Shown here piece after piece: positions 3,001 through 63,316 of a stretch of 64,000 nt of DNA. Made by a program: the position numbers and the translations under genes. Origin of the DNA: Eledone cirrhosa. Taxonomy: Eukaryota. Under the pieces are notes generated by a model, which saw only the letters and a list, made by a program, of their open reading frames with translations, did not search any database and was not told where the DNA came from. The stretch is from the NCBI GenBank assembly GCA_964016885.1, contig OZ024741.1, positions 407,402,001 through 407,466,000 of the forward strand, in the 5' to 3' direction. The first letter of the stretch is position 1; every line of letters begins with the position of its first letter.

Positions 3001-6000
3001 ACTGTAGTAAACTCTAGGTACAGTTCTCATTGGTATCTTCTCATCAGTTTAATACACTGTAGTAAACTCTAGGTACAGTTCTTATTGGTATCTTCTCATC
3101 AGTTTAATACACTGTAGTAAACTCTAGGTACAGTCCTCATTGGTATCTTCTGATCAGTTTAATACACTGTAGTAAACTCTAGGTACAGTTCTCATTGGTA
3201 TCTTCTCATCAGTTTAATACACTGTAGTAAACTCTAGGTACAGTCCTCATTGGTATCTTCTCATCATTTTAATACACTGTAGTAAACTCTAGGTATAGTC
3301 CTCATTGGTATCTTCTCATCAGTTTAATACACTGTAGTAAACTCTAGGTACATTTCTCATTGGTATCTTCTCATCAGTTTAATACACTGTAGTAAACTCT
3401 AGGTACAGTTCTCATTGGTATCTTCTCATCAGTTTAATACACTGTAGTAAACTCTAGGTACAGTTCTCATTGGTATCTTCTCATCAGTTTAATACACTGT
3501 AGTAAACTCTAGGTACAGTTCTCATTGGTATCTTCTCATCAGTTTAATACACTGTAGTAAACTCTAGGTACAGTTCTCATTGGTATCTTCTCATCAGTTT
3601 AATACACTGTAGTAAACTCTAGGTACAGTTCTCATTGGTATCTTCTCATCAGTTTAATACACTGTAGTAAACTCTAGGTACAGTCCTCATTGGTATCTTC
3701 TCATCAGTTTAATACACTGTAGTAAACTCTAGGTACAGTTCTCATTGGTATCTTCTCATCAGTTTAATACACTGTAGTAAACTCTAGGTACAGTCCTCAT
3801 TGGTATCCTCTCATCAGTTTAATACACTGTAGTAAACTCTAGGTACAGTCCTCATTGGTATCTTCTCATCAGTTTAATACACTGTAGTAAACTCTAGGTA
3901 CAGTCCTCATTGGTATCTTCTGATCAGTTTAATAAACTGTAGTAAACTCTAGGTACAGTTCTTATTGGTATCTTCTCATCAGTTTAATACACTGTAGTAA
4001 ACTCTAGGTACAGTCCTCATTGGTATCTTCTCATCAGTTTAATACACTGTAGTAAACTCTAGGTACAGTTCTCGTTGGTATCTTCTCATCAGTTTAATAC
4101 ACTGTAGTAAACTCTAGGTACAGTTCTCATTGGTATCTTCTCATCAGTTTAATACACTGTAGTAAACTCTAGGTACAGTTCTCATTGGTATCTTCTCATC
4201 AGTTTAATACACTGTAGTAAACTCTAGGTACAGTTCTCATTGGTATCTTCTCATCAGTTTAATACACTGTAGTAAACTCTAGGTACAGTCCTCATTGGTA
4301 TCTTCTCATCAGTTTAATACACTGTAGTAAACTCTAGGTACAGTTCTCATCGGTATCTTCTCATCAGTTTAATACACTGTAGTAAACTCTAGGTACAGTC
4401 CTCATTGGTATCTTCTGATCAGTTTAATACACTGTAGTAAACTCTAGGTACAGTCCTCATTGGTATCTTCTCATCAGTTTAATACACTGTAGTAAACTCT
4501 AGGTACAGTTCTCATTGGTATCTTCTCATCAGTTTAATACACTGTAGTAAACTCTAGGTACAGTCCTCATTGGTATCTTCTCATCAGTTTAATACACTGT
4601 AGTAAACTCTAGGTACAGTCCTCATTGGTATCTTCTGATCAGTTTAATACACTGTAGTAAACTCTAGGTACAGTCCTCATTGGTATCTTCTCATCAGTTT
4701 AATACACTGTAGTAAACTCTAGGTACAGTCCTCATTGGTATCTTCTGATCAGTTTAATAAACTGTAGTAAACTCTAGGTACAGTTCTTATTGGTATCTTC
4801 TCATCAGTTTAATACACTGTAGTAAACTCTAGGTACAGTCCTCATTGGTATCTTCTGATCAGTTTAATACACTGTAGTAAACTCTAGGTACAGTCCTCAT
4901 TGGTATCTTCTGATCAGTTTAATACACTGTAGTAAACTCTAGGTACAGTCCTCATTGGTATCTTCTCATCAGTTTAATACACTGTAGTAAACTCTAGGAC
5001 CAGTCCTAATTGGTATCTTCTGATCAGTTTAATACACTGTAGTAAACTCTAGGTACAGTCCTCATTGGTATCTTCTCATCAGTTTAATACACTGTAGTAA
5101 ACTCTAGGTACAGTCCTCATTGGTATCTTCTCATCAGTTTAATACACTGTAGTAAACTCTAGGTACAGTCCTCATTGGTATCTTCTCATCAGTTTAATAC
5201 ACTGTAGTAAACTCTAGGTACAGTTCTCATTGGTATCTTCTCATCAGTTTAATACACTGTAGTAAACTCTAGGACCAGTCCTCATTGGTATCTTCTCATC
5301 AGTTTAATACACTGTAGTAAACTCTAGGTACAGTCCTCATTGGTATCTTCTCATCAGTTTAATACACTGTAGTAAACTCTAGGTACAGTCCTCATTGGTA
5401 TCTTCTGATCAGTTTAATAAACTGTAGTAAACTCTAGGTAGAGGCCTCATTGGTATCTTCTGATCAGTTTAATAAACTGTAGTAAACTCTAGGTACAGTC
5501 CTCATTGGTATCTTCTCATCAGTTTAATAAACTGTAGTAAACTCTAGGTAGAGGCCTCATTGGTATCTTCTGATCAGTTTAATAAACTGTAGTAAACTCT
5601 AGGTACAGTCCTCATTGGTATCTTCTGATCAGTTTAATAAACTGTAGTAAACTCTAGGTAGAGGCCTCATTGGTATCTTCTGATCAGTTTAATAAACTGT
5701 AGTAAACTCTAGGTACAGTCCTCATTGGTATCTTCTGATCAGTTTAATACACTGTAGTAAACTCTAGGTACAGTCCTCATTGGTATCTTCTCATCAGTTT
5801 AATAAACTGTAGTAAACTCTAGGTAGAGGCCTCATTGGTATCTTCTGATCAGTTTAATAAACTGTAGTAAACTCTAGGTACAGTCCTCATTGGTATCTTC
5901 TCATCAGTTTAATACACTGTAGTAAACTCTAGGTACAGTCCTCATTGGTATCTTCTCATCAGTTTAATACACTGTAGTAAACTCTAGGTACAGTCCTCAT

Positions 6001-9000
6001 TGGTATCTTCTGATCAGTTTAATACACTGTAGTAAACTCTAGGTACAGTCCTCATTGGTATCTTCTGATCAGTTTAATAAACTGTAGTAAACTCTAGGTA
6101 GAGGCCTCATTGGTATCTTCTGATCAGTTTAATAAACTGTAGTAAACTCTAGGTACAGTCCTCATTGGTATCTTCTGATCAGTTTAATAAACTGTAGTAA
6201 ACTCTAGGTAGAGGCCTCATTGGTATCTTCTGATCAGTTTAATAAACTGTAGTAAACTCTAGGTACAGTCCTCATTGGTATCTTCTCATCAGTTTAATAC
6301 ACTGTAGTAAACTCTAGGTACAGTCCTCTTTGTTATCTTCTCATCAGTTTAATACACTGTAGTAAACTCTAGGTACAGTCCTCATTGGTATATTCTCATC
6401 AGTTTAATACACTGTAGTAAACTCTAGGTACAGTCCTCATTGGTATCTTCTGATCAGTTTAATACACTGTAGTAAACTCTAGGTACAGTCCTCATTGATA
6501 TCTTCTGATCAGTTTAATAAACTGTAGTAAACTCTAGGTACAGTCCTCATTGGTATCTTCTCATCAGTTTAATACACTGTAGTAAACTCTAGGTACAGTC
6601 CTCTTTGTTATCTTCTCATCAGTTTAATACACTGTAGTAAACTCTAGGTACAGTCCTCATTGGTATCTTCTGATCAGTTTAATAAACTGTAGTAAACTCT
6701 AGGTACAGTCCTCATTGGTATCTTCTGATCAGTTTAATACACTGTAGTAAACTCTAGGTACAGTCCTCATTGATATCTTCTGATCAGTTTAATAAACTGT
6801 AGTAAACTCTAGGTACAGTCCTCATTGGTATCTTCTCATCAGTTTAATACACTGTAGTAAACTCTAGGTACAGTCCTCATTGGTATCTTCTCATCAGTTT
6901 AATACACTGTAGTAAACTCTAGGTACAGTCCTCATTGGTATCTTCTCATCAGTTTAATACACTGTAGTAAACTCTAGGTACAGTCCTCATTGGTATCTTC
7001 TCATCAGTTTAATACACTGTAGTAAACTCTAGGTACAGTCCTCATTGGTATCTTCTCATCAGTATAATACACTGTAGTAAACTCTAGGTACAGTCCTCAT
7101 TGGTATCTTCTCATCAGTTTAATACACTGTAGTAAACTCTAGGTACAGTCCTCATTGGTATCTTCTCATCAGTTTAATACACTGTAGTAAACTCTAGGTA
7201 CAGTCCTCATTGGTATCTTCTCATCAGTTTAATACACTGTAGTAAACTCTAGGTACAGTCCTCATTGGTATCTTCTCATCAGTTTAATACACTGTAGTAA
7301 ACTCTAGCTACAGTCCTCATTGGTATCTTCTCATCAGTTTAATACACTGTAGTAAACTCTAGGTACAGTCCTCATTGGTATCTTCTCATCAGTTTAATAC
7401 ACTGTAGTAAACTCTAGCTACAGTCCTCATTGGTATCTTCTCATCAGTTTAATACACTGTAGTAAACTCTAGGTACAGTCCTCATTGGTATCTTCTCATC
7501 AGTTTAATACACTGTAGTAAACTCTAGGTACAGTCCTCATTGGTATCTTCTCATCAGTTTAATACACTGTAGTAAACTCTAGGTACAGTCCTCATTGGTA
7601 TCTTCTCATCAGTTTAATACACTGTAGTAAACTCTAGGTACAGTCCTCATTGGTATCTTCTCATCAGTTTAATACACTGTAGTAAACTCTAGGTACAGTC
7701 CTCATTGGTATCTTCTCATCAGTTTAATACACTGTAGTAAACTCTAGGTACAGTCCTCATTGGTATCTTCTCATCAGTTTAATACACTGTAGTAAACTCT
7801 AGGTACAGTCCTCATTGGTATCTTCTCATCAGTTTAATACACTGTAGTAAACTCTAGGTACAGTCCTCATTGGTATCTTCTCATCAGTTTAATACACTGT
7901 AGTAAACTCTAGGTACAGTCCTCATTGGTATCTTCTCATCAGTTTAATACACTGTAGTAAACTCTAGGTACAGTCCTCATTGGTATCTTCTCATCAGTTC
8001 AATACACTGTAGTAAACTCTAAGTACAGTTCTCATTGGTATCTTCTCATCAGTTTAATACACTGTAGTAAACTCTAGGTACAGTCCTCATTGGTATCTTC
8101 TCATCAGTTTAATACACTGTAGTAAACTCTAGGTACAGTCCTCATTGGTATCTTCTCATCAGTTTAATACACTGTAGTAAACTCTAGGTAGAGGCCTCAT
8201 TGGTATCTTCTCATCAGTTTAATACACTGTAGTAAACTCTAGGTACAGTCCTCATTGGTATCTTCTCATCAGTTTAATACACTGTAGTAAACTCTAGGTA
8301 CAGTCCTCATTGGTATCCTCTCATCAGTTTAATACACTGTAGTAAACTCTAGGTACAGTCCTCATTGGTATCTTCTGATCAGTTTAATACACTGTAGTAA
8401 ACTCTAGGTACAGTCCTCATTGGTATCTTCTCATCAGTTTAATACACTGTAGTAAACTCTAGGTACAGTCCTCATTGGTATCTTCTCATCAGTTTAATAC
8501 ACTGTAGTAAACTCTAGGTACAGTCCTCATTGGTATCTTCTCATCAGTTTAATACACTGTAGTAAACTCTAGGTACAGTCCTCATTGGTATCTTCTCATC
8601 AGTTTAATACACTGTAGTAAACTCTAGGTACAGTCCTCATTGGTATCTTCTCATCAGTTTAATACACTGTAGTAAACTCTAGGTACAGTCCTCATTGGTA
8701 TCTTCTCATCAGTTTAATACACTGTAGTAAACTCTAGGTACAGTCCTCATTGGTATCTTCTCATCAGTTTAATACACTGTAGTAAACTCTAGCTACAGTC
8801 CTCATTGGTATCTTCTCATCAGTTTAATACACTGTAGTAAACTCTAGGTACAGTCCTCATTGGTATCTTCTCATCAGTTTAATACACTGTAGTAAACTCT
8901 AGGTACAGTCCTCATTGGTATCTTCTCATCAGTTTAATACACTGTAGTAAACTCTAGGTACAGTCCTCATTGGTATCTTCTCATCAGTTTAATACACTGT

Positions 9001-11682
9001 AGTAAACTCTAGGTACAGTCCTCATTGGTATCTTCTCATCAGTTTAATACACTGTAGTAAACTCTAGGTACAGTCCTCATTGGTATCTTCTGATCAGTTT
9101 AATACACTGTAGTAAACTCTAGGTACAGTCCTCATTGATATCTTCTGATCAGTTTAATAAACTGTAGTAAACTCTAGGTACAGTCCTCATTGGTATCTTC
9201 TCATCAGTTTAATACACTGTAGTAAACTCTAGGTACAGTCCTCATTGGTATCTTCTCATCAGTTTAATACACTGTAGTAAACTCTAGGTACAGTCCTCAT
9301 TGGTATCTTCTCATCAGTTTAATACACTGTAGTAAACTCTAGGTACAGTCCTCATTGGTATCTTCTCATCAGTTTAATACACTGTAGTAAACTCTAGGTA
9401 CAGTCCTCATTGGTATCTTCTCATCAGTATAATACACTGTAGTAAACTCTAGGTACAGTCCTCATTGGTATCTTCTCATCAGTTTAATACACTGTAGTAA
9501 ACTCTAGGTACAGTCCTCATTGGTATCTTCTCATCAGTTTAATACACTGTAGTAAACTCTAGGTACAGTCCTCATTGGTATCTTCTCATCAGTTTAATAC
9601 ACTGTAGTAAACTCTAGGTACAGTCCTCATTGGTATCTTCTCATCAGTTTAATACACTGTAGTAAACTCTAGCTACAGTCCTCATTGGTATCTTCTCATC
9701 AGTTTAATACACTGTAGTAAACTCTAGGTACAGTCCTCATTGGTATCTTCTCATCAGTTTAATACACTGTAGTAAACTCTAGCTACAGTCCTCATTGGTA
9801 TCTTCTCATCAGTTTAATACACTGTAGTAAACTCTAGGTACAGTCCTCATTGGTATCTTCTCATCAGTTTAATACACTGTAGTAAACTCTAGGTACAGTC
9901 CTCATTGGTATCTTCTCATCAGTTTAATACACTGTAGTAAACTCTAGGTACAGTCCTCATTGGTATCTTCTCATCAGTTTAATACACTGTAGTAAACTCT
10001 AGGTACAGTCCTCATTGGTATCTTCTCATCAGTTTAATACACTGTAGTAAACTCTAGGTACAGTCCTCATTGGTATCTTCTCATCAGTTTAATACACTGT
10101 AGTAAACTCTAGGTACAGTCCTCATTGGTATCTTCTCATCAGTTTAATACACTGTAGTAAACTCTAGGTACAGTCCTCATTGGTATCTTCTCATCAGTTT
10201 AATACACTGTAGTAAACTCTAGGTACAGTCCTCATTGGTATCTTCTCATCAGTTTAATACACTGTAGTAAACTCTAGGTACAGTCCTCATTGGTATCTTC
10301 TCATCAGTTTAATACACTGTAGTAAACTCTAGGTACAGTCCTCATTGGTATCTTCTCATCAGTTCAATACACTGTAGTAAACTCTAAGTACAGTTCTCAT
10401 TGGTATCTTCTCATCAGTTTAATACACTGTAGTAAACTCTAGGTACAGTCCTCATTGGTATCTTCTCATCAGTTTAATACACTGTAGTAAACTCTAGGTA
10501 CAGTCCTCATTGGTATCTTCTCATCAGTTTAATACACTGTAGTAAACTCTAGGTAGAGGCCTCATTGGTATCTTCTCATCAGTTTAATACACTGTAGTAA
10601 ACTCTAGGTACAGTCCTCATTGGTATCTTCTCATCAGTTTAATACACTGTAGTAAACTCTAGGTACAGTCCTCATTGGTATCCTCTCATCAGTTTAATAC
10701 ACTGTAGTAAACTCTAGGTACAGTCCTCATTGGTATCTTCTGATCAGTTTAATACACTGTAGTAAACTCTAGGTACAGTCCTCATTGGTATCTTCTCATC
10801 AGTTTAATACACTGTAGTAAACTCTAGGTACAGTCCTCATTGGTATCTTCTCATCAGTTTAATACACTGTAGTAAACTCTAGGTACAGTCCTCATTGGTA
10901 TCTTCTCATCAGTTTAATACACTGTAGTAAACTCTAGGTACAGTCCTCATTGGTATCTTCTCATCAGTTTAATACACTGTAGTAATCTCTAGGTACAGTC
11001 CTCATTGGTATCTTCTCATCAGTTTAATACACTGTAGTAAACTCTAGGTACAGTCCTCATTGGTATCTTCTCATCAGTTTAATACACTGTAGTAAACTCT
11101 AGGTACAGTCCTCATTGGTATCTTCTCATCAGTTTAATACACTGTAGTAAACTCTAGGTACAGTCCTCATTGGTATCTTCTCATCAGTTTAATACACTGT
11201 AGTAAACTCTAGGTACAGTCCTCATTGGTATCTTCTCATCAGTTTAATACACTGTAGTAAACTCTAGGTACAGTCCTCATTGGTATCTTCTCATCAGTTT
11301 AATACACTGTAGTAAACTCTAGGTACAGTCCTCATTGGTATCTTCTCATCAGTTTAATACACTGTAGTAAACTCTAGGTACAGTCCTCATTGGTATCTTC
11401 TCATCAGTTTAATACACTGTAGTAAACTCTAGGTACAGTCCTCATTGGTATCTTCTCATCAGTTTAATACACTGTAGTAAACTCTAGGTACAGTCCTCAT
11501 TGGTATCTTCTCATCAGTTTAATACACTGTAGTAAACTCTAGGTACAGTCCTCATTGGTATCTTCTCATCAGTTTAATACACTGTAGTAAACTCTAGGTA
11601 CAGTCCTCATTGGTATCTTCTCATCAGTTTAATACACTGTAGTAAACTCTAGGTACATTCCTCATCGGTATCTTCTCATCAG
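1..11682. repeat. 55-bp tandem satellite, ~212 units, continues off the left edge
   Basis: Unit CTCATTGGTATCTTCTCATCAGTTTAATACACTGTAGTAAACTCTAGGTACAGTC recurs at 1, 56, 111 ... 7261, 11221, 11661 (all 1+55n), so phase is kept with no net indels; only point variants seen. Confidence 0.99.
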
Positions 11683-47755: not shown

Positions 47756-48323
47756 ATGGTGGCTGCCAATTCGTTTTCGAGTACGGCCACTACTTTATAT
47801 CCATGAAGGGGAACCCCTACAGATGCGCTGAACGAGTGTGACTTTTTAGTCCAGCCAGCGACTTGAAAACTTTGGTACAAACACTACACTTGTGACAATT
47901 ATTGACACATAGTGTTGGGGCCATGGTACCATGTGACGACAAGTGCAGAGAGATCTCCAGATATAAAGCAATGCCTGTGCCGTGAAGCTTTTATAGTGAG
48001 CAAAGGCACTGCACAAAGCCAGTCCCACTCTCTTAACCAAGATGATATTTACCAAAAAGAAGAACAAGTCAACATCATTGGATACCATCAGGGTTGCAGG
48101 TTTTCGAGTACGGCCACTACTTTATATACATGTAGGAGAACCCCTACCGATGCGCTGAACGAGTGTGACTTTTTAGTCCAGCCAGCGAGTTGAAAACTCT
48201 GGTACAAACACTACACTTGGTATCCAATGATGTTGACTTGTTCTTCTTTTTGGTAAATATCATCTTGGTTAAGAGAATGGGACTGGCTTTGTGCAGTGCC
48301 TTTGCTCACTATAAAAGCTTCAC
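47756..48323 (-). mobile_element. rearranged copy of the non-autonomous RTE-derived element (3' part, tandem fragment, inverted fragment)
   Basis: 47756-48100 matches 48412-48756; 48100-48219 repeats the 3' segment; 48218-48323 is an inverted copy of ~47983-48087; flanked by (CATA)n. Confidence 0.85.
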
Positions 48324-48411
48324 ATATATACATACATTCATACATACATACATACATACATACATACATACATACATACATACATACATACATACATACA
48401 TACATACATAC

Positions 48412-49020
48412 ATGGTGGCTGCCAACTCGTTTTCGAGTACGGCCACTACTTTATATCCATGTAGGAGAACCCCTACCAATGCGCTGAACGAGTGTGACTT
48501 TTTAGTCCAGCCAGCGACTTGAAAACTGTGGTACAAACACTACACTTGTGACAATTATTGACACATAGTGCTGGGCCCATGGTACCATGTGACGACAAGT
48601 GCAGAGAGATCTCCAGATATAAAGCAATGCCTGTGCTGTGAAGCTTTTATAGTGAGCAAAGGCACTGCACAAAGCCAGTCCCACTCTCTTAACCAAGATG
48701 ATATTTACCAACAAGAAGAACAATTCAACATCATTGGATACCATCAGGGTTGCAGGTGTTATATCAGAGTTTTCCTTCTCCTAGAATTCTGCCTTGACAA
48801 AGGCTAAGGGGTCATCTCTCCCGGTGATTTGGGATGGCTATTGACTCTTAAGAGCCCCTTTGCCTTTTGACAGGTTTTGTTTTTAGTCCTGCAGGATGTC
48901 CAAAGCCACCCTCCTCACCAAGAAACCTTGGTGGGGTTGCCAGTTTAGTCGCCAACGACCCGACCATGAGACAGGTTGTACTGGGATACATGTTACCAGT
49001 AGCACCAACTGGTGACCTGA
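48412..49020 (-). mobile_element. ~610-bp non-autonomous RTE-type LINE derivative (5' UTR joined to 3' end), apparently full length
   Basis: Minus strand carries the RTE 5'-UTR-like motif GGAGAAGGAAAACTCTGAT, a terminal C2H2-like remnant (C-S-V-C-x-x-x-F-K-S-L-A-G-L-K-S-H-T-R-S-A), a 3' hairpin CTCG-AAAA-CGAG and a (TATG)n tail; (CATA)n on both sides; multiple copies in the window. Confidence 0.75.
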
Positions 49021-49095
49021 CATACATACATACATACATACATACATACATACATACATACATACATACATACATACATACATACATACATACAT

Positions 49096-49418
49096 GTTTG
49101 GGACCACACATTGAAAACGTGTTCTGTTGTGGAGATCAGCTGCCCACTTGTGTAAACGTTGTCAGAAAAATACAGGAGAAGGAGGACATCTACGGACCAT
49201 TGATGAGGAGATTACAAATCGAGTATCCAAGATACACCTTTAGCTTCATACCCATCATTATTGGAGCTACGGGTTATATACCAACCCGCTTGGACCAAAG
49301 TATGACTGAACTTGAATTTGCGGACAAAGAGCGCAGCTCCCTAATTCATAGTCTACAAATGGCTGCGAAAGCTGGCACCTTCAACATTTGCAAAACATTC
49401 TTGCGATTCAAGGGATGA
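49096..49418 (+). pseudogene. C-terminal restriction-like endonuclease fragment of an R4/Dong-type non-LTR retrotransposon
   Basis: WDHTLKTCSVVEISCPL, then a frameshift near 49150, then VNVVRKIQEKEDIYGPL...FIPIIIGATGYIP...LQMAAKAGTFNICKTFL; matches the E-x-S-C-P...EK..Y..L...PIIIGA.G...Q....GT..I pattern of RLE C-termini. Confidence 0.8.
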
Positions 49419-50528: not shown

Positions 50529-50738
50529 AGAAGAGAGTATGACCCCGACGGCAGAGCTCAAGCCGTTTCGACGGCTATTTCTGGACTAACTCTTACAGTA
50601 GTCCAGAAATAGCCGTCGAAACAGCTTGATCTCTGCCGTCAGGGTCATACTTTCTCCTTTTACCCACTCTACTACCCTAAGTATTGAGTACTCTGGTGCG
50701 TTATGGTCCACCTGGTTCCTTACCACACCTCCTTCGTT
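50529..50738 (+). mobile_element. short fold-back element, family F copy 1
   Basis: ~60-bp inverted arms (50529-50588 / 50599-50658) plus an ~80-bp unique tail; flanked by (TA)n; homologous to 54440-54631 and 55465-55645. Confidence 0.85.
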
Positions 50739-50755
50739 ATATATATATATCTATA

Positions 50756-50951
50756 TGTATGTGTGTGTGTATGTGTGTGTTTCTGTGTATGTGTGCATGT
50801 GGGTGTGTGGGTGTATGTGGGTGTGGTTGTGTGTAGTGTGTGTGTGTATGCGTGTATGTGTGTGTGTATGTGTGTGTGTGTATGTGTGTGTGTGTATGTG
50901 TGTGTGTGTATGTGTGTGTGTATGTGTGTGTGCGTGCGTGTGTGTGTGTGT
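50756..50951. repeat. degenerate (TG)n microsatellite
   Basis: Read directly. Confidence 0.93.
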
Positions 50952-51115
50952 AACTGATATGCACCACGATGCGTTACGACATGCAACTATCCAACAACTC
51001 TGATTCTCAGTAAAGATTTATATATCTTTTCAATTACTCTCAATAACCGTTTCATCAACGGCTCATATATATGTATATATATACTTACATTATATATATA
51101 TATGTATGTATATAC

Positions 51116-51166
<51 letters not shown>

Positions 51167-51265
51167 CTAGCTTTGACAATTATACGCACGTACACATGTT
51201 TATATATATATATATATATATAAATAATGTGTGTGTGTGTATGTATGTATGTATGTATGTATATA

Positions 51266-51722
51266 TCAAAGGGCAAAGGAGCTCTTAAGAGTCAATGGCC
51301 ATCTAAAATCACTGGGAGAGATGACCCCTTAGCCTTTGTCAAGGCAGAATTCTAGGAGAAGGAAAACTCTGATATAACACCTGCAACCCTGATGGTATCC
51401 AATGATGTTGACTTGTTCTTCTTTTTGGTAAATATCATCTTGGTTAAGAGAGTGGGACTGGCTTTGTGCAGTGCCTTTGCTCACTATAAAAGCTTCACGG
51501 CACAGGCATTGCTTTGTATCTGGAGATCTCTCTGCACTTGTCGTCACATGGTACCAAAGGCAAAGCACTATGTGTCAATAATTGTCACAAGTGTAGTGTT
51601 TGTACCAGAGTTTTCAAGTCGCTGGCTGGACTAAAAAGTCACTCGTTCAGCGCATCGGTAGGGGTTCTCCTACATGGATATAAAGTAGTGGCCGTACTCG
51701 AAAACGAGTTGGCAGCCACCAT
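51266..51722 (+). mobile_element. 5'-truncated copy of the non-autonomous RTE-derived element
   Basis: Reverse complement of ~48412-48870; ends GTACTCGAAAACGAGTTGGCAGCCACCAT followed by a TATG-rich tail. Confidence 0.85.
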
Positions 51723-51763
51723 ATATCTATGTATGTATGTATGTATATATCTGTATCTATATA

Positions 51764-51837
<74 letters not shown>

Positions 51838-51842
<5 letters not shown>

Positions 51843-52685
51843 TATTAAAAAAATAATGAATAAACAAAGAAACAATTCCTTATATTAAAAAAATTCATCA
51901 TTTTACGATCGTTTCTAGGATATATATGTGTTAGAGTTGGTATGCATATTCTATAGATCTATGTACAATATTTATACAAACTATCAGAGGGAATATATAT
52001 ACCTACACATATATATGCTGTCTTCAGAAATAATGATATTTGTTTATTGATAAGAACAAAGATTCAATACAATAGGTCTGTTTGGGAACAGGTTTTGAAT
52101 TGACCAATAGAGAGATAGTGAGGGTCAAGATAGTATTATAGTAGTAAGAGAACCTTAAATTATGGGTAGAGGAAGGTAGATTTCAGTTTTGGATGGAAAA
52201 GAGTATTATGAATGAAGGATTATTTTAGGGAAGAAATAGGTCATATGCTGACCTCAGAAATAATTTTATTTGTTCATTGAATAAAACCAACAAAGATCTA
52301 ATATATTCTGTCTGTTTGGTAAGAGGTTTAGAATTAACCAATAGAAAGTTAATAATTGGCCAAATGGTAAAATAGTAGTAATTGAAGCTTATTTTAGGGG
52401 TGAAACTAGGTCAGGTGGTCAGTAAAAGGTATACAAGCAGTTGCTGTTATAAAATAGTAATGCCAATACAAATATCTAAGGTGACCAAAGTTTTAAGATA
52501 AGAATGTTAGTGAAAAAATACATCTATGAAAAGAATATAAAATTAATTTAATTGATGGGTATATTTATATTGATAAAATTATACTAATACATATAGATAT
52601 GATAAATAAGAGTTAGATGCAGTTGAAAAGTGCTGTTAAAATGAGGGGGGATTAAAAGAATATAAAAATAATATAAAAATATAAA

Positions 52686-52745
<60 letters not shown>

Positions 52746-52938
52746 ATGAATTTTTTTAATATAAGGAATTGTTTCTTTGTTTATTCATTATTTTTTTAAT
52801 AATTTATCTTGACTCTGTTTTCCGTTTATTTTTCACCGAAAGTAGTTTTTGAATGCATCTTCTCTTTTCATGATATCCGGATTACATTGAGTTCTTCATA
52901 CGGATTGGACACTACCGTAAACTTTTGGTAGATTTATC

Positions 52939-52941
<3 letters not shown>
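51838..52941 (-). mobile_element. hammerhead-bearing non-coding element (51838-~52690) plus an inverted partial copy (52741-52941)
   Basis: 51838-51903 is the reverse complement of 52741-52806; hammerhead at 51895-52036; diverged internal ~230-bp duplication (52021 vs 52251); (TA)n at all borders. Confidence 0.75.
51895..52036 (-). ncRNA. type I hammerhead ribozyme with long stem II
   Basis: Minus strand: TCATTATTT CTGAAGA [cagcATATATATGTGT...ACACATATATATccta] GAAA CGATCG TA^AAATGATGA; 9-bp stem I with one G-U pair, palindromic stem III; base of stem II partly decayed. Confidence 0.75.
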
Positions 52942-52993
<52 letters not shown>

Positions 52994-52994
<1 letters not shown>

Positions 52995-53735
52995 CAATAC
53001 CTAAACAGAGAAAGCCTTAAACGATACTCCAACCAACTCCATCTCACTCAACAAACATTAGGATATACCTAAGTATTATCCCAATTTAGTGTTTGGAGTG
53101 CTAACTAATCAGTATTTCGTGGATAACTGGTTGTATTATTTTATATGAGACATTATTAAATAAATATTTCTTTCCTTCCAGACGGCCGTTTCGTTATAAG
53201 ATTTCTACAATTTGGGATAAATAATTTCCAGGTTATGTAGAAATTTGTATATAATCCATAGTTTTATACACAAGCAGGCACTTATAAACTCATCAGTGGA
53301 TGCCCAAATAATATCGATATAAGAATTATATCAACATTAATAGAATGGTGATGGTCTCCCTCAGCACTAAGAAGAGACTGGTAGATTAGAACCCAGCAGT
53401 CCTCCCAAATATAAAATACACGCCGCCCCTAAGAGGGTAAGGGGAGGTAATCTTAAAATAAAACAATATACACGCTGGTCATTTAAACCTGTCAGGTATT
53501 AACCACGTGTATAAGAACACAATTGGATATTGAAAGAATAACCATATGTATACACAACCAATGCACACACAGAGATATTAAAACATAATAAATACATATA
53601 TGGATTACCCATATACACACATAGCCATTCTATAAGGCTAAATCAGACATGGGATACAAGGAAGATCAATCAGTATTTCATATAAAAAATAATAATAATA
53701 AAGAGAGTCATACCTTATATCTGGAAATCATATAG
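52994..53735 (-). mobile_element. (TA)n-flanked non-coding element with hammerhead
   Basis: Unique sequence between (TA)n tracts containing the canonical hammerhead at 53177-53300. Confidence 0.65.
53177..53300 (-). ncRNA. type I hammerhead ribozyme, canonical core, branched long stem II
   Basis: Minus strand: TCCA CTGATGA GTTTATAAG...CTTATAAC GAAA CGGCCG TC^TGGA; GUC cleavage triplet, palindromic stem III. Confidence 0.88.
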
Positions 53736-54000
53736 ATATATATATATATACATATACATATACATATACATATATATACATATTTAATTAGATAATTCTA
53801 TTGATTGATTAATTGTTTATGTTTGTTTGATAACGTCTGGTTGAGTGCTTAATTCGGTTTGTCTAAAGGAATTTCATTCCTTTGTCTCAAATTTCGAATT
53901 CACCGCCAAAACGGGGGTACCTCCCTTGGAGAAAACCACGTGTCTATAGCGAAATTTACTGCTAGAACATACCCACAGAGGCTAAATAACACAAGACTTG

Positions 54001-54097
54001 TTGAAGAAGTAAATCCTTTGTTCTGTCGTCAAAGACCATTAACTTGCAGACCCCTGCAAGCGGAATTTGTCGATCTTGGATTTGCAGAAACCTAGCG
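54001..54097 (+). ncRNA. degenerate hammerhead-like motif
   Basis: TTGAAGA a GTAAATCC...GGATTTGC a GAAA CCTAG cg; stem II is good, but the cleavage triplet and stem I are decayed. Confidence 0.35.
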
Positions 54098-54398
54098 CTG
54101 ATGTTGTGTGCTGTATGTGATGTATGTCGTATGCTATACGATATGCATTATATGTTGCATTCGATCTCAGCATTTTGTCCAGGTCACTCTAAAATCTTTT
54201 CCTGAGTCCAACCATTCTCGTTGGTGTGGTAATGCTGCTGGACTGCCGATCGCAATATTTGACTTGCTAAGCTGTCTAAACGTATTTTTATTACTCTGGG
54301 ATACTATTCCCATTCGAGTGCTAAAGCTACATACCGAATTTGCATTCGTTAGCTTGGCCGCAAACTAAGGCTTCGTTAATGCTGTACTAAAATGTGTA

Positions 54399-54439
<41 letters not shown>

Positions 54440-54441
<2 letters not shown>

Positions 54442-54628
54442 CGAAGGAAATGTGGTAAGGAACCAGGTGGACCATAACGCACCAAAGTACTCAATACTTG
54501 AAGTAGTAGAGTGGGTAATAGGAACCAGTAAGACCCCGACAGCTGAGCTCAAGCCGTTTCGACGGCTAATTCTGGACTGAATTAGCCGTCGAAACGGCTT
54601 GAGCTCAGCTGTCGGGGTCTTACTGGTT

Positions 54629-54631
<3 letters not shown>
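54440..54631 (-). mobile_element. short fold-back element, family F copy 2
   Basis: Reverse-orientation homolog of 50529-50738; perfect arms around CTGGACT (~54572-54578); (TA)n flanks. Confidence 0.85.
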
Positions 54632-54667
<36 letters not shown>

Positions 54668-54945
54668 GGAATAGAATGATACGAAATTTCATTTCTCACT
54701 CTTAGTACGACACTTACTTAAATGTAAGTATGTATGCATGTATACGTACATACATATATGTATACAGACGTACGGTAGTATGTATATATATACATACATG
54801 CACACATATATATATGCACGTATCGGTTTACTGAACATTTACTATAATGCTCGGTTTGTTTGTTTGTAAACAAACAAACGGCCCGAATTACGCCGTACAG
54901 TGTTTAGGCAACCACTTCACCTTTTTGTTCAACACTGACACAGGA

Positions 54946-54988
54946 ACGATGTACTAGTTTCAAGCTTATTAGCTATCGTCAGCATCGT
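54946..54988 (-). ncRNA. minimal type I hammerhead ribozyme (left arm)
   Basis: Exact reverse complement of 55147-55189. Confidence 0.88.
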
Positions 54989-55146
54989 ATACCTTCCTGC
55001 CAGATGGCTGAACGTCTGAAAGTATATCGTTTTCGGTGTTGCCGGCCGACTGAACTCACTCGATATGCAAATTAGGCTGCTCAGCCGTTAATATGCATAA
55101 GGAAAGTATATACTTTCAGACGTTCAACCATCTGGCAGGAAGGTGT

Positions 55147-55189
55147 ACGATGCTGACGATAGCTAATAAGCTTGAAACTAGTACATCGT
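55147..55189 (+). ncRNA. minimal type I hammerhead ribozyme (right arm)
   Basis: ACGATG CTGACGA t-AGCT-aata-AGCT-t GAAA CTAG TA^CATCGT; 6-bp stem I, palindromic stem III ACTAGT. Confidence 0.88.
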
Positions 55190-55408
55190 TCCTGTGTCAG
55201 TGTTGAACAAAAAGGTGACGTGGTTGCCTAAACACTGTACGGCGTAATTCGGGCTGTTTGTTTGTCTACAAACAAACAAACCGAGCATTATAATAAATGT
55301 TCGGTAAACTGATACGTGCATATATATATATATGTGTGCATGTATGTATATATATACATACTACTGTACGTCTGTATACATATATGTATGTACGTATACA
55401 TACATACT

Positions 55409-55464
<56 letters not shown>

Positions 55465-55466
<2 letters not shown>

Positions 55467-55640
55467 AAAAAGTATGACCTCGACGGCAGAGCACAAGCCG
55501 TTTCGACGGCTATTTCTGGAGTCCAGAAATAACCGTCGAAACGGCTTGAGCTCTGCCGTCGGGGTCATACTTTTTCCTATTTCCCACTCTACTCCCTAAG
55601 TATTGAGTACTCTGGTGCGTTATGGTCCATCTGGTTCCTT

Positions 55641-55645
<5 letters not shown>
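55465..55645 (+). mobile_element. short fold-back element, family F copy 3
   Basis: Arms meet at CTGGA|GTCCAG (55520/55521); same tail as copy 1; (TA)n flanks. Confidence 0.85.
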
Positions 55646-55680
<35 letters not shown>

Positions 55681-56948: not shown

Positions 56949-57746
<798 letters not shown>

Positions 57747-58691: not shown

Positions 58692-60690
58692 GAGATACAG
58701 CAAATACATGATGGGAGAGAGTAAATCCTCAACGCTCACATGATGATGTGGACTGACATCGTAAAGCCAAGCAGACGCACTGCCAACAACTTCTAGGCGT
58801 CTAACAATGGCATACCACCCTTGTATGGGCTCCGCAAAGACCACAAGACAGTCGACGACCCGACAACAGGACCACCAACAAGAGCTGTATGCGGAGCAAA
58901 TATAGCTAGCAACTACAGGATCTCCTACTTCCTCTCAATGGTTATACGCCCCATAATGAAGATGTCCCCAGATGTATGTGAAAGTACAGAAGACCTCCTC
59001 AGCAGAATCAGTGAGTGCAACAAAAACAGGAACCTATCCAACTGCACAATAGGCAGCATGGATGTGGTGTCACTGTACCCATCCATTAACATTGATTTTG
59101 CTGTGGAAAAATGTGTGGAGATGATCAGTGAGAGTGAGGTGGAGTTCTGCGACGTCGACACAGACGAACTGAGCCTCCTACTTAGACTTACCTACGATAC
59201 TGACTACCTAGACAGCCATGACCTTAAACATTTCTGCCCCAGTAGACCCATAAGAGGTAGACACCCCACCATAATCTCAATGGCAAAAAAGACTCCCATG
59301 GGAAGGTGGATTGGGTGGACCAAAGTTATACGGACCCCCCAAACAATGATCAGGTAAGAAAAATGGTTGCACATGTAATAGGGACTAGTATCAAAACTAC
59401 CCTAAAGGGCCACATATTCAAATTCAACGAGAAGATCTACACCCAAAATGAGGGAGCAGCCATTGGCGTCAGCATAGCTGGTGACGTTGCCAACCTTTTT
59501 ATGGTATGGTGGGAAAGAAGACTCAAAGATCTCCTTGATGAGAGCTCCATAGACCTCAACATGTACTCTCGTTACGTAGACGACATCAATATATTAATAA
59601 GGACATCCCCACAAGAGAGTACTAACAAGTTTGATTTAGAACGTAGCACAATGGAAAGCATCCAGCAGATAGCTAATTCTATACACCAGAGTATGACTGT
59701 AACTATCGACTACCCTTCCAAACACCCTAACAATAGACTACCTGAATTAGACACGGAACTCTGGATTAACACTATAGACGAGAGAGACCAAATTATCCAC
59801 TTACACTATGCTAAACCCATGGCCTCCAAATACCTGATACTCAAAAACTCAGCAAAGTCCAGCAGTGCTAAGTTTAATATTCTGATCGCAGACTTGGTAC
59901 GAGTGATGAAGAACGTGTCCCGCATGTGTGACCCAACAGAAATGGAAAGACACATCCAACACTTCATCAACCGCATGCAGTTCTCTGGCTACACCCAAAG
60001 AGACAGAATCAGAGTATACGAAGGAGCCACGGAGAAGTATAAGACCCTCATAGAACTGGACATGAAAGGAATTTGCCCATTATACAGGAGCAAATCATGG
60101 AATAGCTTAGATAGGACTAGACATAAGATAGGGAAAGCCACCTCATGGTATGACAACCAGAGATACCAGAGTGTCATTTTTGTGGACGCTACCCCTGGAG
60201 GGAAATTAGCTAACCAGTGTAGAAAGGCCCTGAGAAAGACCCACTTAAAGATTAAGCTGGTAGAAAAGGCAGGAACCACCATAAAATCCCTGATCAGCAA
60301 AACCTACCCTTTTAAGAAAACCCACTGTACTAATAGGAAATGTATTATATGTAAAGTAAACTCCCGGATAAACTGTAAAACTAGAAACGTAGTCTAAAGC
60401 ATAAGATGTACAGAGGGTACTTGCAGAAACATGGCAACAACATACATAGGCGAGACAGCTCGTAGCATAGGTGAAAGGATATACTGGGGGGAACTAAAAG
60501 GACGAAAAAACGGTTCAGTACTATACGAACATGCCAGACAACAACACGACGGTAACATAGACAACATAGAAGTTAGAATAATATCTAAACATAGAAATGA
60601 CCCAGCAGATAGGCAAATCAGAGAGGCCAGCGAAATAGAACTTAGAAGGCCAAGGCTAAACGGAAAAAAATGAATGGAATAACAACACCT
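58692..60690 (+). pseudogene. PLE reverse transcriptase - Zn finger - GIY-YIG endonuclease ORF, disrupted
   Basis: LNAHMMMW...LYGLRKDHK...TRAVC; SMDVVSLYPSI; YTQNEGAAIGVSIAGDVANLFMVWW; RYVDD; HYAKPMAS; FVDATPGG; CxxxxCxxC...C; VV*(Y)...YIGETARS...H...H...RQIREA...LN. Stops at 58722, 58794 and 60395; frameshifts near 59320 and 60670. Confidence 0.93.
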
Positions 60691-60953
60691 AAACAAACAA
60701 CACTGACCTAAGAGAAGTATAAATAAATAAATACATACACAAACACAATAATAACAAACACATATAAACACACACTAGTAAACTAAGATAGAATACATTA
60801 ACCAATACACAGTCACGCAATCACGAACACACATCAAACAAAACACTATACACACACGCAAACGCATGCGCAGAGAAGATAAAAAATAAAAAAATAAACA
60901 AATAAACAGAAGATGGCGTAGGCATACAATACAACGGGAGGAAACATAATAGA

Positions 60954-60995
60954 ACCACTGACGAAGTTGCAGATGTGCAACGAAAGAACTCTGTT
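60954..60995 (+). ncRNA. minimal hammerhead in the PLE 3' repeat
   Basis: ACCA CTGACGA a GTTGCA-gatg-TGCAAC GAAA GAAC TC^TGTT; 6-bp stem II, one stem I mismatch. Confidence 0.7.
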
Positions 60996-61235
60996 AGACT
61001 ATATATATGTGTTTGTGTCTATATTGTATCTGCATTTTGTACCGTTGGTCAGTCAATGGTAACATTGAGGACCGAATGAATTAACTTAACCGATATAAAA
61101 GACACAGAAGCGAAAACCAACCAAACGGTGAGTGTGTTCTGTTATTAATTCTGGCAATATTATTACACAAATATGACCCTCCCCAAGTATAACAAATTTG
61201 TTTCGACACACGATTTCATATCAAAAACCTCGCAA

Positions 61236-61313
<78 letters not shown>

Positions 61314-61316
<3 letters not shown>

Positions 61317-62291
61317 ATATATAGAGTTATAAACTCAAACAGTCTTTTACAATTAAATAGCTCAAAGAAAGAAGTATTTCTGAGCCGTGAAATACAAGTT
61401 AATATAAATTAATATATGATAAACACTAATACAATCATATAAGTGTTTGTATTGCAAATGACCAAGTTAGCTAGATTGAAAAATACTAATTAGATTAATA
61501 CAGTTTGCCTGTCTCGATTTAAAATAATAAATCAATAAAAACAAACCCATATTGGCAATAGCCGTGATACCTGGACAAATTTAAATTTCAAAACTCAAAC
61601 CTGTTCCGTAGATAGGTTTAAATTTCAAAACCCAAATAAGTTTCGCAACGATAAGTGAGAGAGTGAAAGATTCCATTTACTGTGCTCATCGACAGGTATG
61701 CAGAAAAATTGGTATGTTTCACCTCGAAATACTTAGGAGGACTGATAGGCAAGTGTTAACGCACATGGTTTTTCAGTTCCTAGTTATCCCCATTCTCGTG
61801 CTGCTAGAAATAACAGCCGTTTTTATGGGACTAAAATTTAGCTCAACAAAAGGAGCCGTTAATACAATATATAGAGTTATAAACTCAAACAGTCTTTTAC
61901 AATTAAATAGCTCAAAGAAAGAAGTATTTCTGAACCGTGAAATACAAGTTAATATAAATTAATATATGATAAACACTAATACAATCATATAAGTGTTTGT
62001 ATTGCAAATGACCAAGTTAGCTAGATTGAAAAATACTAATTAGATTAATACAGTTTGCCTGTCTCGATTTAAAATAATAAAATAATAAAAACATATAATA
62101 AATAATAAATCAATAAAAACACGGCTATTGCCAATATGGGTTTGTTTTTATTGATTTATTATTTTATATCGTGACAGGCAAACTGTATTAATCTAATTAA
62201 TATTTTTCAATCTAGCTAACTTGGTCATTTGCAATACAAAAACACTTATATGATTGTATTACTGTTTATCATATATTAATTTATATTAACT

Positions 62292-62296
<5 letters not shown>
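61314..62296 (-). mobile_element. retrozyme-like element: 550-bp monomer, direct repeat and fold-back arm
   Basis: 61314-~61540 is repeated at 61864-~62119; 62120-62296 is inverted; hammerhead-like motif at 61567-61699; microsatellite flanks. Confidence 0.85.
61567..61699 (-). ncRNA. hammerhead-like motif with long stems II and III and altered core (TCGATGA)
   Basis: Minus strand: ATACCTG TCGATGA GCA...TGC GAAA C...G TC^CAGGTAT; perfect 7-bp stem I; positions 3-4 deviate from CU. Confidence 0.55.

Positions 62297-62373: not shown

Positions 62374-63316
<943 letters not shown>

Follow-up and report, generated by a model that had tools for sequence, protein, structure and literature searches.

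Inverted pairs of Penelope-like element ends have been described before. Excerpts of PMC8557442 report an inverted 5'-truncated copy with a tail at one end and (TA)n targets, and those of PMC3846280 report inverted pLTRs placed head-to-head, with palindromes of 18–38 bp at the pLTR 5' end and self-priming as the proposed origin. According to PMC11167929, the tail is made by two internal starts of reverse transcription, both target strands are extended and uncut RNA is the main template. The role of the Penelope hammerhead is called unclear in the excerpts of PMC8557442, and the ribozyme is dispensable in vitro according to PMC11167929.

The window, i.e. the whole 64-kb stretch of DNA that was analysed, contains three fold-back copies of a short repeat, here called family F. 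As far as the excerpts of PMC3846280 and PMC8557442 go, they share with the head-to-head pLTR insertions of EN+ Penelope-like elements the inverted 5'-truncated 5' copy, a tail on one arm only, an AT-rich simple target and a palindrome at the junction. Unlike the pairs in those excerpts, family F consists of the end only, with no ORF; its tail measures about 80 nt rather than 30–40 nt, and its turning point varies by no more than 8 nt between copies and between organisms. By analogy, family F is likely a solo head-to-head pLTR pair with a tail, a kind already known for Penelope-like elements.

The Hydra clade, as represented in part of PMC8557442 (files S1, S2 and S7), has the same (TA)n preference and likewise a palindromic stem III followed by a GUH triplet, and three of its six consensus sequences carry, by eye, the same RCTC..GAGY-ACT hairpin after the hammerhead. 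Family F differs from it in a longer stem III loop and in showing no visible 5' core, and the 3' end of Hydra-1_Obim is different. Poseidon PAc of Anolis (PMC11167929) also has two internal 3' ends downstream of the hammerhead and carries the cut site uncut; these ends lie at least 85 nt after the cut in PAc, but 18 and 98 nt after it in family F. Like the non-LTR retrozymes in excerpts of bioRxiv 10.64898/2026.07.22.740005 and PMC7229834, family F is short, non-coding, apparently PLE-derived and linked to a hammerhead, but it forms head-to-head pairs rather than tandems and has no complete hammerhead. A neighbouring family, b, with a 319-nt partial tandem and a complete hammerhead, fits the retrozymes of these excerpts well. 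The 3' ends of Naiad_Obim/Ovul are only loosely like family F and were set aside.

Anatomy and turning point of family F

Similarity search and alignment bore out three fold-back copies with differing junctions, as the original prediction had it. Each copy has head-to-head arms of about 55–60 and 125–140 nt. Copy 1 (50529–50738) and copy 3 (55464–55646) have their long arm on the plus strand and copy 2 (54440–54633) on the minus strand; the other matches in the window span only 13–21 nt (E 0.39–0.45). Copy 1 is composed of a short, inverted, tail-less arm (50529..50588, minus strand) whose outer end lies on (TA)n, a 10-nt spacer (50589..50598) that is nearly private to this copy by read and contig depth, and a long arm (50599..50738, plus strand) made of a pLTR-like end and a tail of about 80 nt, ending in CCTTCGTT on (TA)n. 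The long and short arms occupy 54440..54578 (minus strand) and 54579..54633 (plus strand) in copy 2; in copy 3 the short arm is at 55464..55520 (minus strand) and the long arm, whose tail end is shorter, at 55521..55646 (plus strand).

All six outer ends lie on (TA)n, which obscures any target-site duplication of fixed length. The three short arms all stop at the same inner, tail-less 3' end (50658..50659, plus strand), which we infer to be the start of the first reverse transcription. The family has two alternative 3' ends, 50658 and 50738, about 80 nt apart, and (AT)n follows 50658 in 577 X12 reads and 24 X1 contigs. Over 53 sites the two arms of a copy differ at five positions in copy 1, none in copy 2 and three in copy 3. 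The arms of copy 2 share one haplotype (53/53 identical), 7–10 sites away from the other copies; those of copy 1 (5/53 apart) are as far from each other as from copy 3 (4–6). The long arms fold no better than shuffled sequences (z 0.66, 0.85 and −0.21).

The copies turn at 50599–50606 in copy 1 numbering. The junctions read CTGGACTA-ACTCTTACAG-TAGTCCAG in copy 1, GCTAATTC-AGTCCAG in copy 2 and TTCTGGA-GTCCAG in copy 3, and the short arms end at 50599, 50606 and 50602, respectively, that is, within 8 nt. Record 19 of X7, a contig from another organism, has the junction 50602/50601, identical to that of copy 3, and X1 contigs show numerous short deletions spanning 50590–50599. The fold-backs are not an assembly artefact, because their arms differ, the copy 3 junction recurs in X7 record 19 and the X1 contigs carry these deletions. 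The turning point is fixed at 50599–50606 in more than one organism. The proposal that all copies invert at the same point is right in that the turn is fixed across the family, but it is fixed only to within 8 nt. Copy 1 had also been described as keeping a spacer before an arm that starts at GTCCAG; the spacer is there, but TA is present in both arms, so that it measures 10 nt, and T50599, 2 nt upstream of the cut that had been proposed, is the first base of the arm.

Sequences upstream of the turn

In place of the BLAST check suggested in the original prediction, 19,696 reads from four of the 14 listed runs were piled up on copy 1 with a 185-nt query; depths are not copy numbers, as RAD reads over-weight some loci. 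In X12, depth is about 62 over 50590–50596, 120 at 50598, 1,677 at 50599 and 2,973 at 50609. Coverage of the copy 1 spacer is about 2 per cent of depth (~62 of ~3,000 in X12; ~6,000 of 636,000 in X1). T replaces A at 50597 in 55 of 100 reads and G at 50598 in 53 of 100.

Five upstream consensus lines of 30 letters each are listed, with an agreement of 0.44–0.45 in the two large sets; a further 360 loose-end rows lie outside these lines and could include a minority subfamily. A sequence of about 21 nt upstream of the turn is common to X1, X5 and X7 (X5 against X7, 17/21), and the X12 consensus (706 reads, agreement 0.44) agrees with it at the last few letters only. Longer copies share a natural sequence upstream of the turn; it has no match within the 64-kb window. 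The X5 version pairs back on the arm start, shuffles being as good in 10 of 2,000 cases with the copy 2 arm and in 49 of 2,000 with the copy 1 arm. For X7 the pairing is not significant (522 and 560 of 2,000 shuffles). Both pair about equally well or better with 50697–50737. Letters resembling a core just 5' of this shared stretch vary among X1, X5 and X7 and were rejected as a hammerhead core.

Origin of the palindromes

A hammerhead-like 3' half, GTC-GAAA-stem III-GTC^GGGG, sits whole within both arms (50615..50646, plus strand). Its stem III has 5–6 bp and a loop with the palindrome GAGCTC, and its predicted cut, 50640|50641, lies 41 nt beyond the turn. It is intact in five of the six arms; a G-to-A change at 50623 breaks it in the long arm of copy 1. 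Dinucleotide shuffles match all its features at frequencies of 0.0004–0.0012 and the stem alone at 0.03–0.04. Judged by its sequence, this is a better hammerhead half than the copy 1 spacer. X12 depth has no step at 50641 (bins of 8,530, 8,754 and 8,586 across 50632–50652). The hammerhead 5' core is absent from the arms and from the 30 listed upstream letters, and the three copies hold neither tandem units nor a complete hammerhead. At the gathering threshold, nothing in the window matches Rfam; when E is relaxed to 10, the copies give only chance matches of hairpin type, and a weak Hammerhead_1 match appears at 53175–53302. Two other arrangements were discarded. A second hammerhead with TGGACTA/TAGTCCA as stem II (cf. 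Penelope-2_NV) works only with 2 nt inserted after GAA, and takes the fold-back arm itself as its 5' strand; for a type II permutation, CUGANGA is missing from the long arm.

Further along lies a tail hairpin, ACTC-TAC..GTA-TT-GAGT-ACT (50666..50692, plus strand; 17 of 20,000 shuffles). The pattern GCTC..GAGC-ACT is seen by eye in three of six Hydra-clade consensus ends; the hairpin pattern was picked after the Hydra sequences had been viewed and is not a published defining mark.

The reading that we favour, and hold to be somewhat probable, is that the palindromes are head-to-head pairs, inserted in (TA)n, of the end of a short high-copy repeat, likely a Hydra-clade-like Penelope pLTR, copied from RNA that was likely uncut by its own hammerhead and that folded back at a natural imperfect palindrome. 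A Penelope reverse transcriptase-endonuclease acting in trans would nick (TA)n, and cDNA would start at two internal sites, so that one arm has the tail and the other lacks it. The copy would then fold back at the imperfect palindrome in the RNA, and therefore every insertion would turn at nearly the same place; small differences between junctions would reflect the fold-back register, deletions that arose later in the centre of the palindrome, or end-joining. Retrotransposition had been proposed from the outset, and we judge this to be right. Against the Penelope-end reading stand the tail of about 80 nt, where 30–40 nt is usual, the internal half with no 5' half in the 30 listed letters, the fold-back pairing, which is not significant for X7 and is equalled or bettered by 50697–50737, the X12 upstream consensus, which has little in common with the shared sequence, the long arms, whose folding does not exceed that of shuffles, and the arms of copy 1, which are no closer to each other than to copy 3. 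An RT/GIY-YIG remnant at 58.8–60.7 kb has a 3' end unlike family F, and no ORF-bearing parent was found in metagenome, prokaryote genome and viral collections. Five family F motifs had no match in the full-text literature, nor exact ones in the PMC8557442 supplement.

Alternatively, although we think this unlikely, the turn could mark where an RNA begins after an upstream hammerhead in a master copy has cut it, or after other processing, as in family b, whether or not the copy 1 spacer forms part of the ribozyme. The family boundary at 50599–50601 is indeed sharp, the neighbouring families b and c turn at or near hammerheads (see below), and one of the five upstream lines (X7, two contigs, agreement 0.67) has GAAA, within an A-run, 14 nt upstream. 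The other four lines, however, end in ATT without GAAA, none of the five has the 5' core, reads that enter the spacer mostly show TT, and the better hammerhead half is found within the arm, 41 nt past the turn.

We give still less weight to a palindromic master copied whole, in which the turn would be inherited rather than new and the junctions would differ by later centre deletions. Long palindromes are prone to such deletions, and those across 50590–50599 in X1, with one junction found in two organisms, speak for it. The haplotype shared by the copy 2 arms would nevertheless need a new fold-back or conversion, and most reads do not come from fold-backs (the short arm has a depth of about 110 in X12, palindromes being likely under-sequenced).

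The original prediction took AA-CT-cttac-AG-TA^GTCCAG in copy 1 as the remnant 3' half of a hammerhead, the arms as its cleavage product starting at GTCCAG, and expected CTGANGA and GAAACTCTTACAG immediately 5' in longer copies. One arm does start at G50601 in copy 3 and in X7 record 19, and stem III is similarly short in Hydra-clade hammerheads. The hammerhead at the spacer is not supported, and this exact model is largely refuted and very improbable: the spacer is not common to the family; immediately 5' of the triplet, neither GAAA nor stem III is conserved; the AG of the spacer is mostly TT in the reads; chance alone yields a half-site of this kind in 7.6 per cent of cases; TA belongs to both arms and to 1,677 reads; and the spacer would be missing from any 3' cleavage product. 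Neither CTGANGA nor GAAACTCTTACAG occurs in any of the five listed 30-letter upstream lines.

A MITE, or another derivative of a DNA transposon that has long inverted repeats, was rejected in the original prediction, rightly in our view. It would be short, high-copy, non-coding and palindromic with TA-rich targets, but is equally improbable, since the long arm continues for about 80 nt beyond the inverted repeat, which is thus not terminal, (TA)n follows single arms at either of two sites, and the arms hold the hammerhead half and the Hydra-type tail hairpin.

Neighbouring fold-backs and predicted hammerhead cuts

For family F the outcome is mainly one of correct annotation: repeat finders would likely call these palindromes MITEs or miRNA-like hairpins, and they are probably Penelope ends. 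They would yield double-stranded RNA if transcribed.

A side result on the neighbouring fold-backs outweighs this, as it bears on whether retrotransposed RNA has first been cleaved by the Penelope hammerhead; it is one clear case. Literature searches, incomplete in coverage, found no published link between turning point and hammerhead cut, and this does not prove that none exists. It is possible, and we say so tentatively, that in this genome Penelope-type palindromes preserve, in their turning points, a fossil record of RNA template ends, some families (b, perhaps c, perhaps F via an upstream ribozyme) turning exactly at their hammerhead cut. If true, retrotransposition of cleaved RNA in vivo would be shown, and the role of the Penelope hammerhead could be read from genomes family by family. 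The comparison of junctions with cut sites covers four neighbours here and can be extended genome-wide.

A relaxed hammerhead scan gave 13 candidates, several long and loose ones being taken as chance. Fold-backs a (54732–55407) and d (62769–62974) have no turn at a hammerhead cut, and the fold-back of family c (61945–62293) starts 7 nt past a degenerate hammerhead. One of the four neighbouring fold-backs, that of family b (57273–57599), begins 0–2 nt from the predicted cut of a complete hammerhead. The general mechanism first proposed, turning at a hammerhead cut, is not supported for family F and may hold for family b.

The family b ribozyme is a complete type I hammerhead with a U3–A8 core (57119..57164, minus strand; predicted cut 57123|57122), reading AGCC-TTGATAA-stem II-A-GAAA-CAAG/CTTG-TC^GGCT, which none of 5,000 shuffles equalled. 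By alignment, the first base of the inverted arm (57429..57599, plus strand) matches the base that directly follows the predicted cut, the junction lying at cut+0 to +2 with a 2-nt microhomology. The partial tandem (57006..57428, minus strand; period 319 nt) begins at cut+12, takes in the tail, the body and the hammerhead, which is intact, and stops on (TA)n at an end without a tail.

Structure and abundance of the family F fold-backs

BLAST confirmed the three copies of the fold-back repeat family F (50529–50738, 54440–54633 and 55464–55646), each composed of a short arm of 55–60 nt and a long arm of 125–140 nt placed head-to-head, with all six outer ends on (TA)n. In the numbering of copy 1, whose long arm occupies 50599–50738 (+), the long arm begins at T50599 and the short arm stops at 50599 in copy 1; the corresponding positions are A50600 and 50606 in copy 2, and G50601 and 50602 in copy 3. 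The TA of copy 1 belongs to both arms, so its spacer is 10 nt long. Deletion is a known event at the centre of long palindromes. The arms differ from each other at 5, 0 and 3 of 53 sites in copies 1, 2 and 3, and copy 2 differs from the other copies at 7–10 sites. The long arm continues for about 80 nt past the inverted repeat, which argues against a MITE, in agreement with the original prediction.

Four of the 14 listed runs were matched to 50562–50746 at 80% likeness. Family F is abundant in RAD reads (X12; 19,696 of 12.47 million reads, a depth not equal to copy number) and in contigs (X1; 15,796 of 16.5 million), and is present in two other organisms (38 contigs in X5 and 10 in X7). Record 19 of X7 has the same junction as copy 3; the turning point, fixed as predicted, is therefore common to more than one organism. 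These fold-backs are a real feature of a kind already known, and the family is new.

The turning point and the spacer of copy 1

The X12 depth is about 62 over 50590–50596, 120 at 50598, 1,677 at 50599 and 2,973 at 50609; the boundary is thus sharp and the spacer nearly private to copy 1. This spacer had been read as the 3' half of a hammerhead cut at TA^GTCCAG, the palindromes being retrotransposed 3' cleavage products. That reading is not supported: reads mostly have TT (T at 50597 in 55 and at 50598 in 53 of 100 covering reads in X12, and likewise in X1), and among random AT-rich 12-mers followed by a fixed TA, 7.6% contain a half-site of the same quality. Neither the CTGANGA core nor the sequence predicted upstream of the turn occurs in the five upstream consensus lines listed (30 letters each), outside which there are 360 further loose-end rows. 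Their support is 706 reads (agreement 0.44), 45 contigs (0.45), 2 (0.93), 1 and, for the last, 2 contigs (0.67); four finish in ATT and the last has GAAA within an A-run. About 21 nt upstream of the turn are common to X1, X5 and X7 (17/21 between X5 and X7), and therefore a longer natural form exists, which is not a hammerhead 3' half.

The X1 depth rises about fivefold past 50655 (region 50650–50660). A larger subfamily in X1 shares the tail, differs around 50645–50660 and keeps GAGCTCAGCCGTCGGGGTC.

Hammerhead-like half, tail and probable origin of family F

A scan for hammerhead 3' halves identified GTC-GAAA-CGGC(T)-loop-(A)GCCG-TC^GGGG in five of the six arms. It has C11.1, A15.1-U16.1, C15.2-G16.2, a GUC triplet and a palindromic loop, all listed as features of Penelope-like element (PLE) hammerheads (PMC4209133); shuffles were as good in 0.0004–0.0012 of cases (0.03–0.04 for the stem alone). 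The predicted cut falls between 50640 and 50641, 41 nt beyond the turn, and the depth shows no step there, so the copies derive from RNA that had not been cut at this position. No 5' half was found in the arms or the 30 upstream letters; the ribozyme may therefore be inactive, or its stem II may be long, as in the hammerhead at 53180–53296 (−), which has a 97-nt stem II insert, palindromic GAAAC-GGCC-GTC and a weak Rfam Hammerhead_1 match (E 0.59).

A second 3' end lies at 50658, 80 nt ahead of the first, and 577 reads and 24 contigs run into (AT)n behind it. The tail hairpin RCTC..GAGY-ACT (50666–50692) has, by eye, a likeness in three of six new Hydra consensus sequences (PMC8557442), apart from a G-C to A-T exchange. 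This pattern, drawn up after the Hydra sequences were seen, matches only the three family F copies in the window and occurs in 17 of 20,000 shuffles.

Family F combines two 3' ends, (TA)n targets, a fixed turn and a hammerhead half carried whole. According to published work, PLE insertions commonly include an inverted 5'-truncated copy and bear a tail at one end (PMC8557442); junctions of the head-to-head kind, which have palindromes at the 5' end of the terminal repeat (pLTR), are interpreted as self-priming (PMC3846280); and the tail arises from two internal reverse transcriptase starts, with both strands extended and uncut RNA as the main template (PMC11167929). A Penelope origin, taken alone, is very likely. 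The fuller scheme, in which a Penelope protein acting in trans would insert the element end from two starts and the copy would fold back at a natural imperfect palindrome, seems rather probable. Support for this fold-back step is mixed: pairing of the X5 upstream sequence with the arm start was matched by 10 and 49 of 2,000 shuffles, whereas that of X7 was no better than shuffles (522 and 560 of 2,000), and both pair equally well with 50697–50737.

Neighbouring fold-backs and repeats

Four other fold-backs (families a–d) lie in 44.4–64 kb. Family b (57006–57599) is retrozyme-like, with a 319-nt partial tandem, an inverted arm and a complete type I hammerhead (57119–57164, −; 0/5,000 shuffles) whose U3-A8 core is known from PMC4209133. 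Alignment of the inverted arm, at 57429, begins with the base directly past the predicted cut and shows 2-nt microhomology; the second arm begins at cut+12, from where it continues as the partial tandem. The proposal that fold-backs turn at a hammerhead cut therefore has one good example in the window, in another family, but is not supported for family F itself. We estimate the chance of a turn within 3 positions of the cut in a ~320-nt unit at about 1%, or about 4% for four tries. A non-exhaustive literature search found no published link between fold-back turning points and hammerhead cuts; the family b junction is the main interest here and invites a genome-wide comparison of junctions with cuts.

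The arm of family c (61945–62293) starts 7 nt past a degenerate hammerhead site; in a longer copy (61310–61720) this site (GTC^CAGGTAT) belongs to a three-way fold that is hammerhead-like but degenerate and whose stem III is very long. In families a and d the turn is not at the cut. Family a (54732–55407; ~306-nt arms) carries a whole minimal type I hammerhead in both arms (cores 55153+ and 54982−, CTAG loop) and turns well upstream of the cut. Family d (62769–62974), a fold-back of a repeat end also present at 62375–62640 (−), where a hammerhead core (62632−) lies upstream of that end, turns far downstream of the cut.

The window is repeat-rich, animal-type DNA: satellite arrays of a 55 bp unit (x 212, 97% matches; 1–11682) and a 38 bp unit (x 855, 81% matches; 11903–44365) are followed by microsatellites and transposon pieces. 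A SINE-like repeat at 44.6–44.9 kb may resemble octopus SINEs. A coding remnant at 49095–49418 (+) had no Pfam match; its translation resembles the restriction-like endonuclease that non-LTR elements carry at the C terminus. The broken Penelope-like ORF at 58797–61000 (+), rejected as the parent of family F, has a reverse transcriptase (RVT_1, E 2e-4; YVDD), a GIY-YIG-like stretch beyond a stop codon and a hammerhead core at 60958, and ends on (TA)n 8 nt past the predicted cut. A ~460-nt repeat of high identity (96%) forms several full or partial, direct or inverted pieces (47758–48870 and 51266–51720) with (ACAT)n flanks. An identical 64-nt inverted pair (51840–51903 and 52741–52804, ~840 nt apart), each member adjoining (TA)n, encloses a 230-bp direct duplication.
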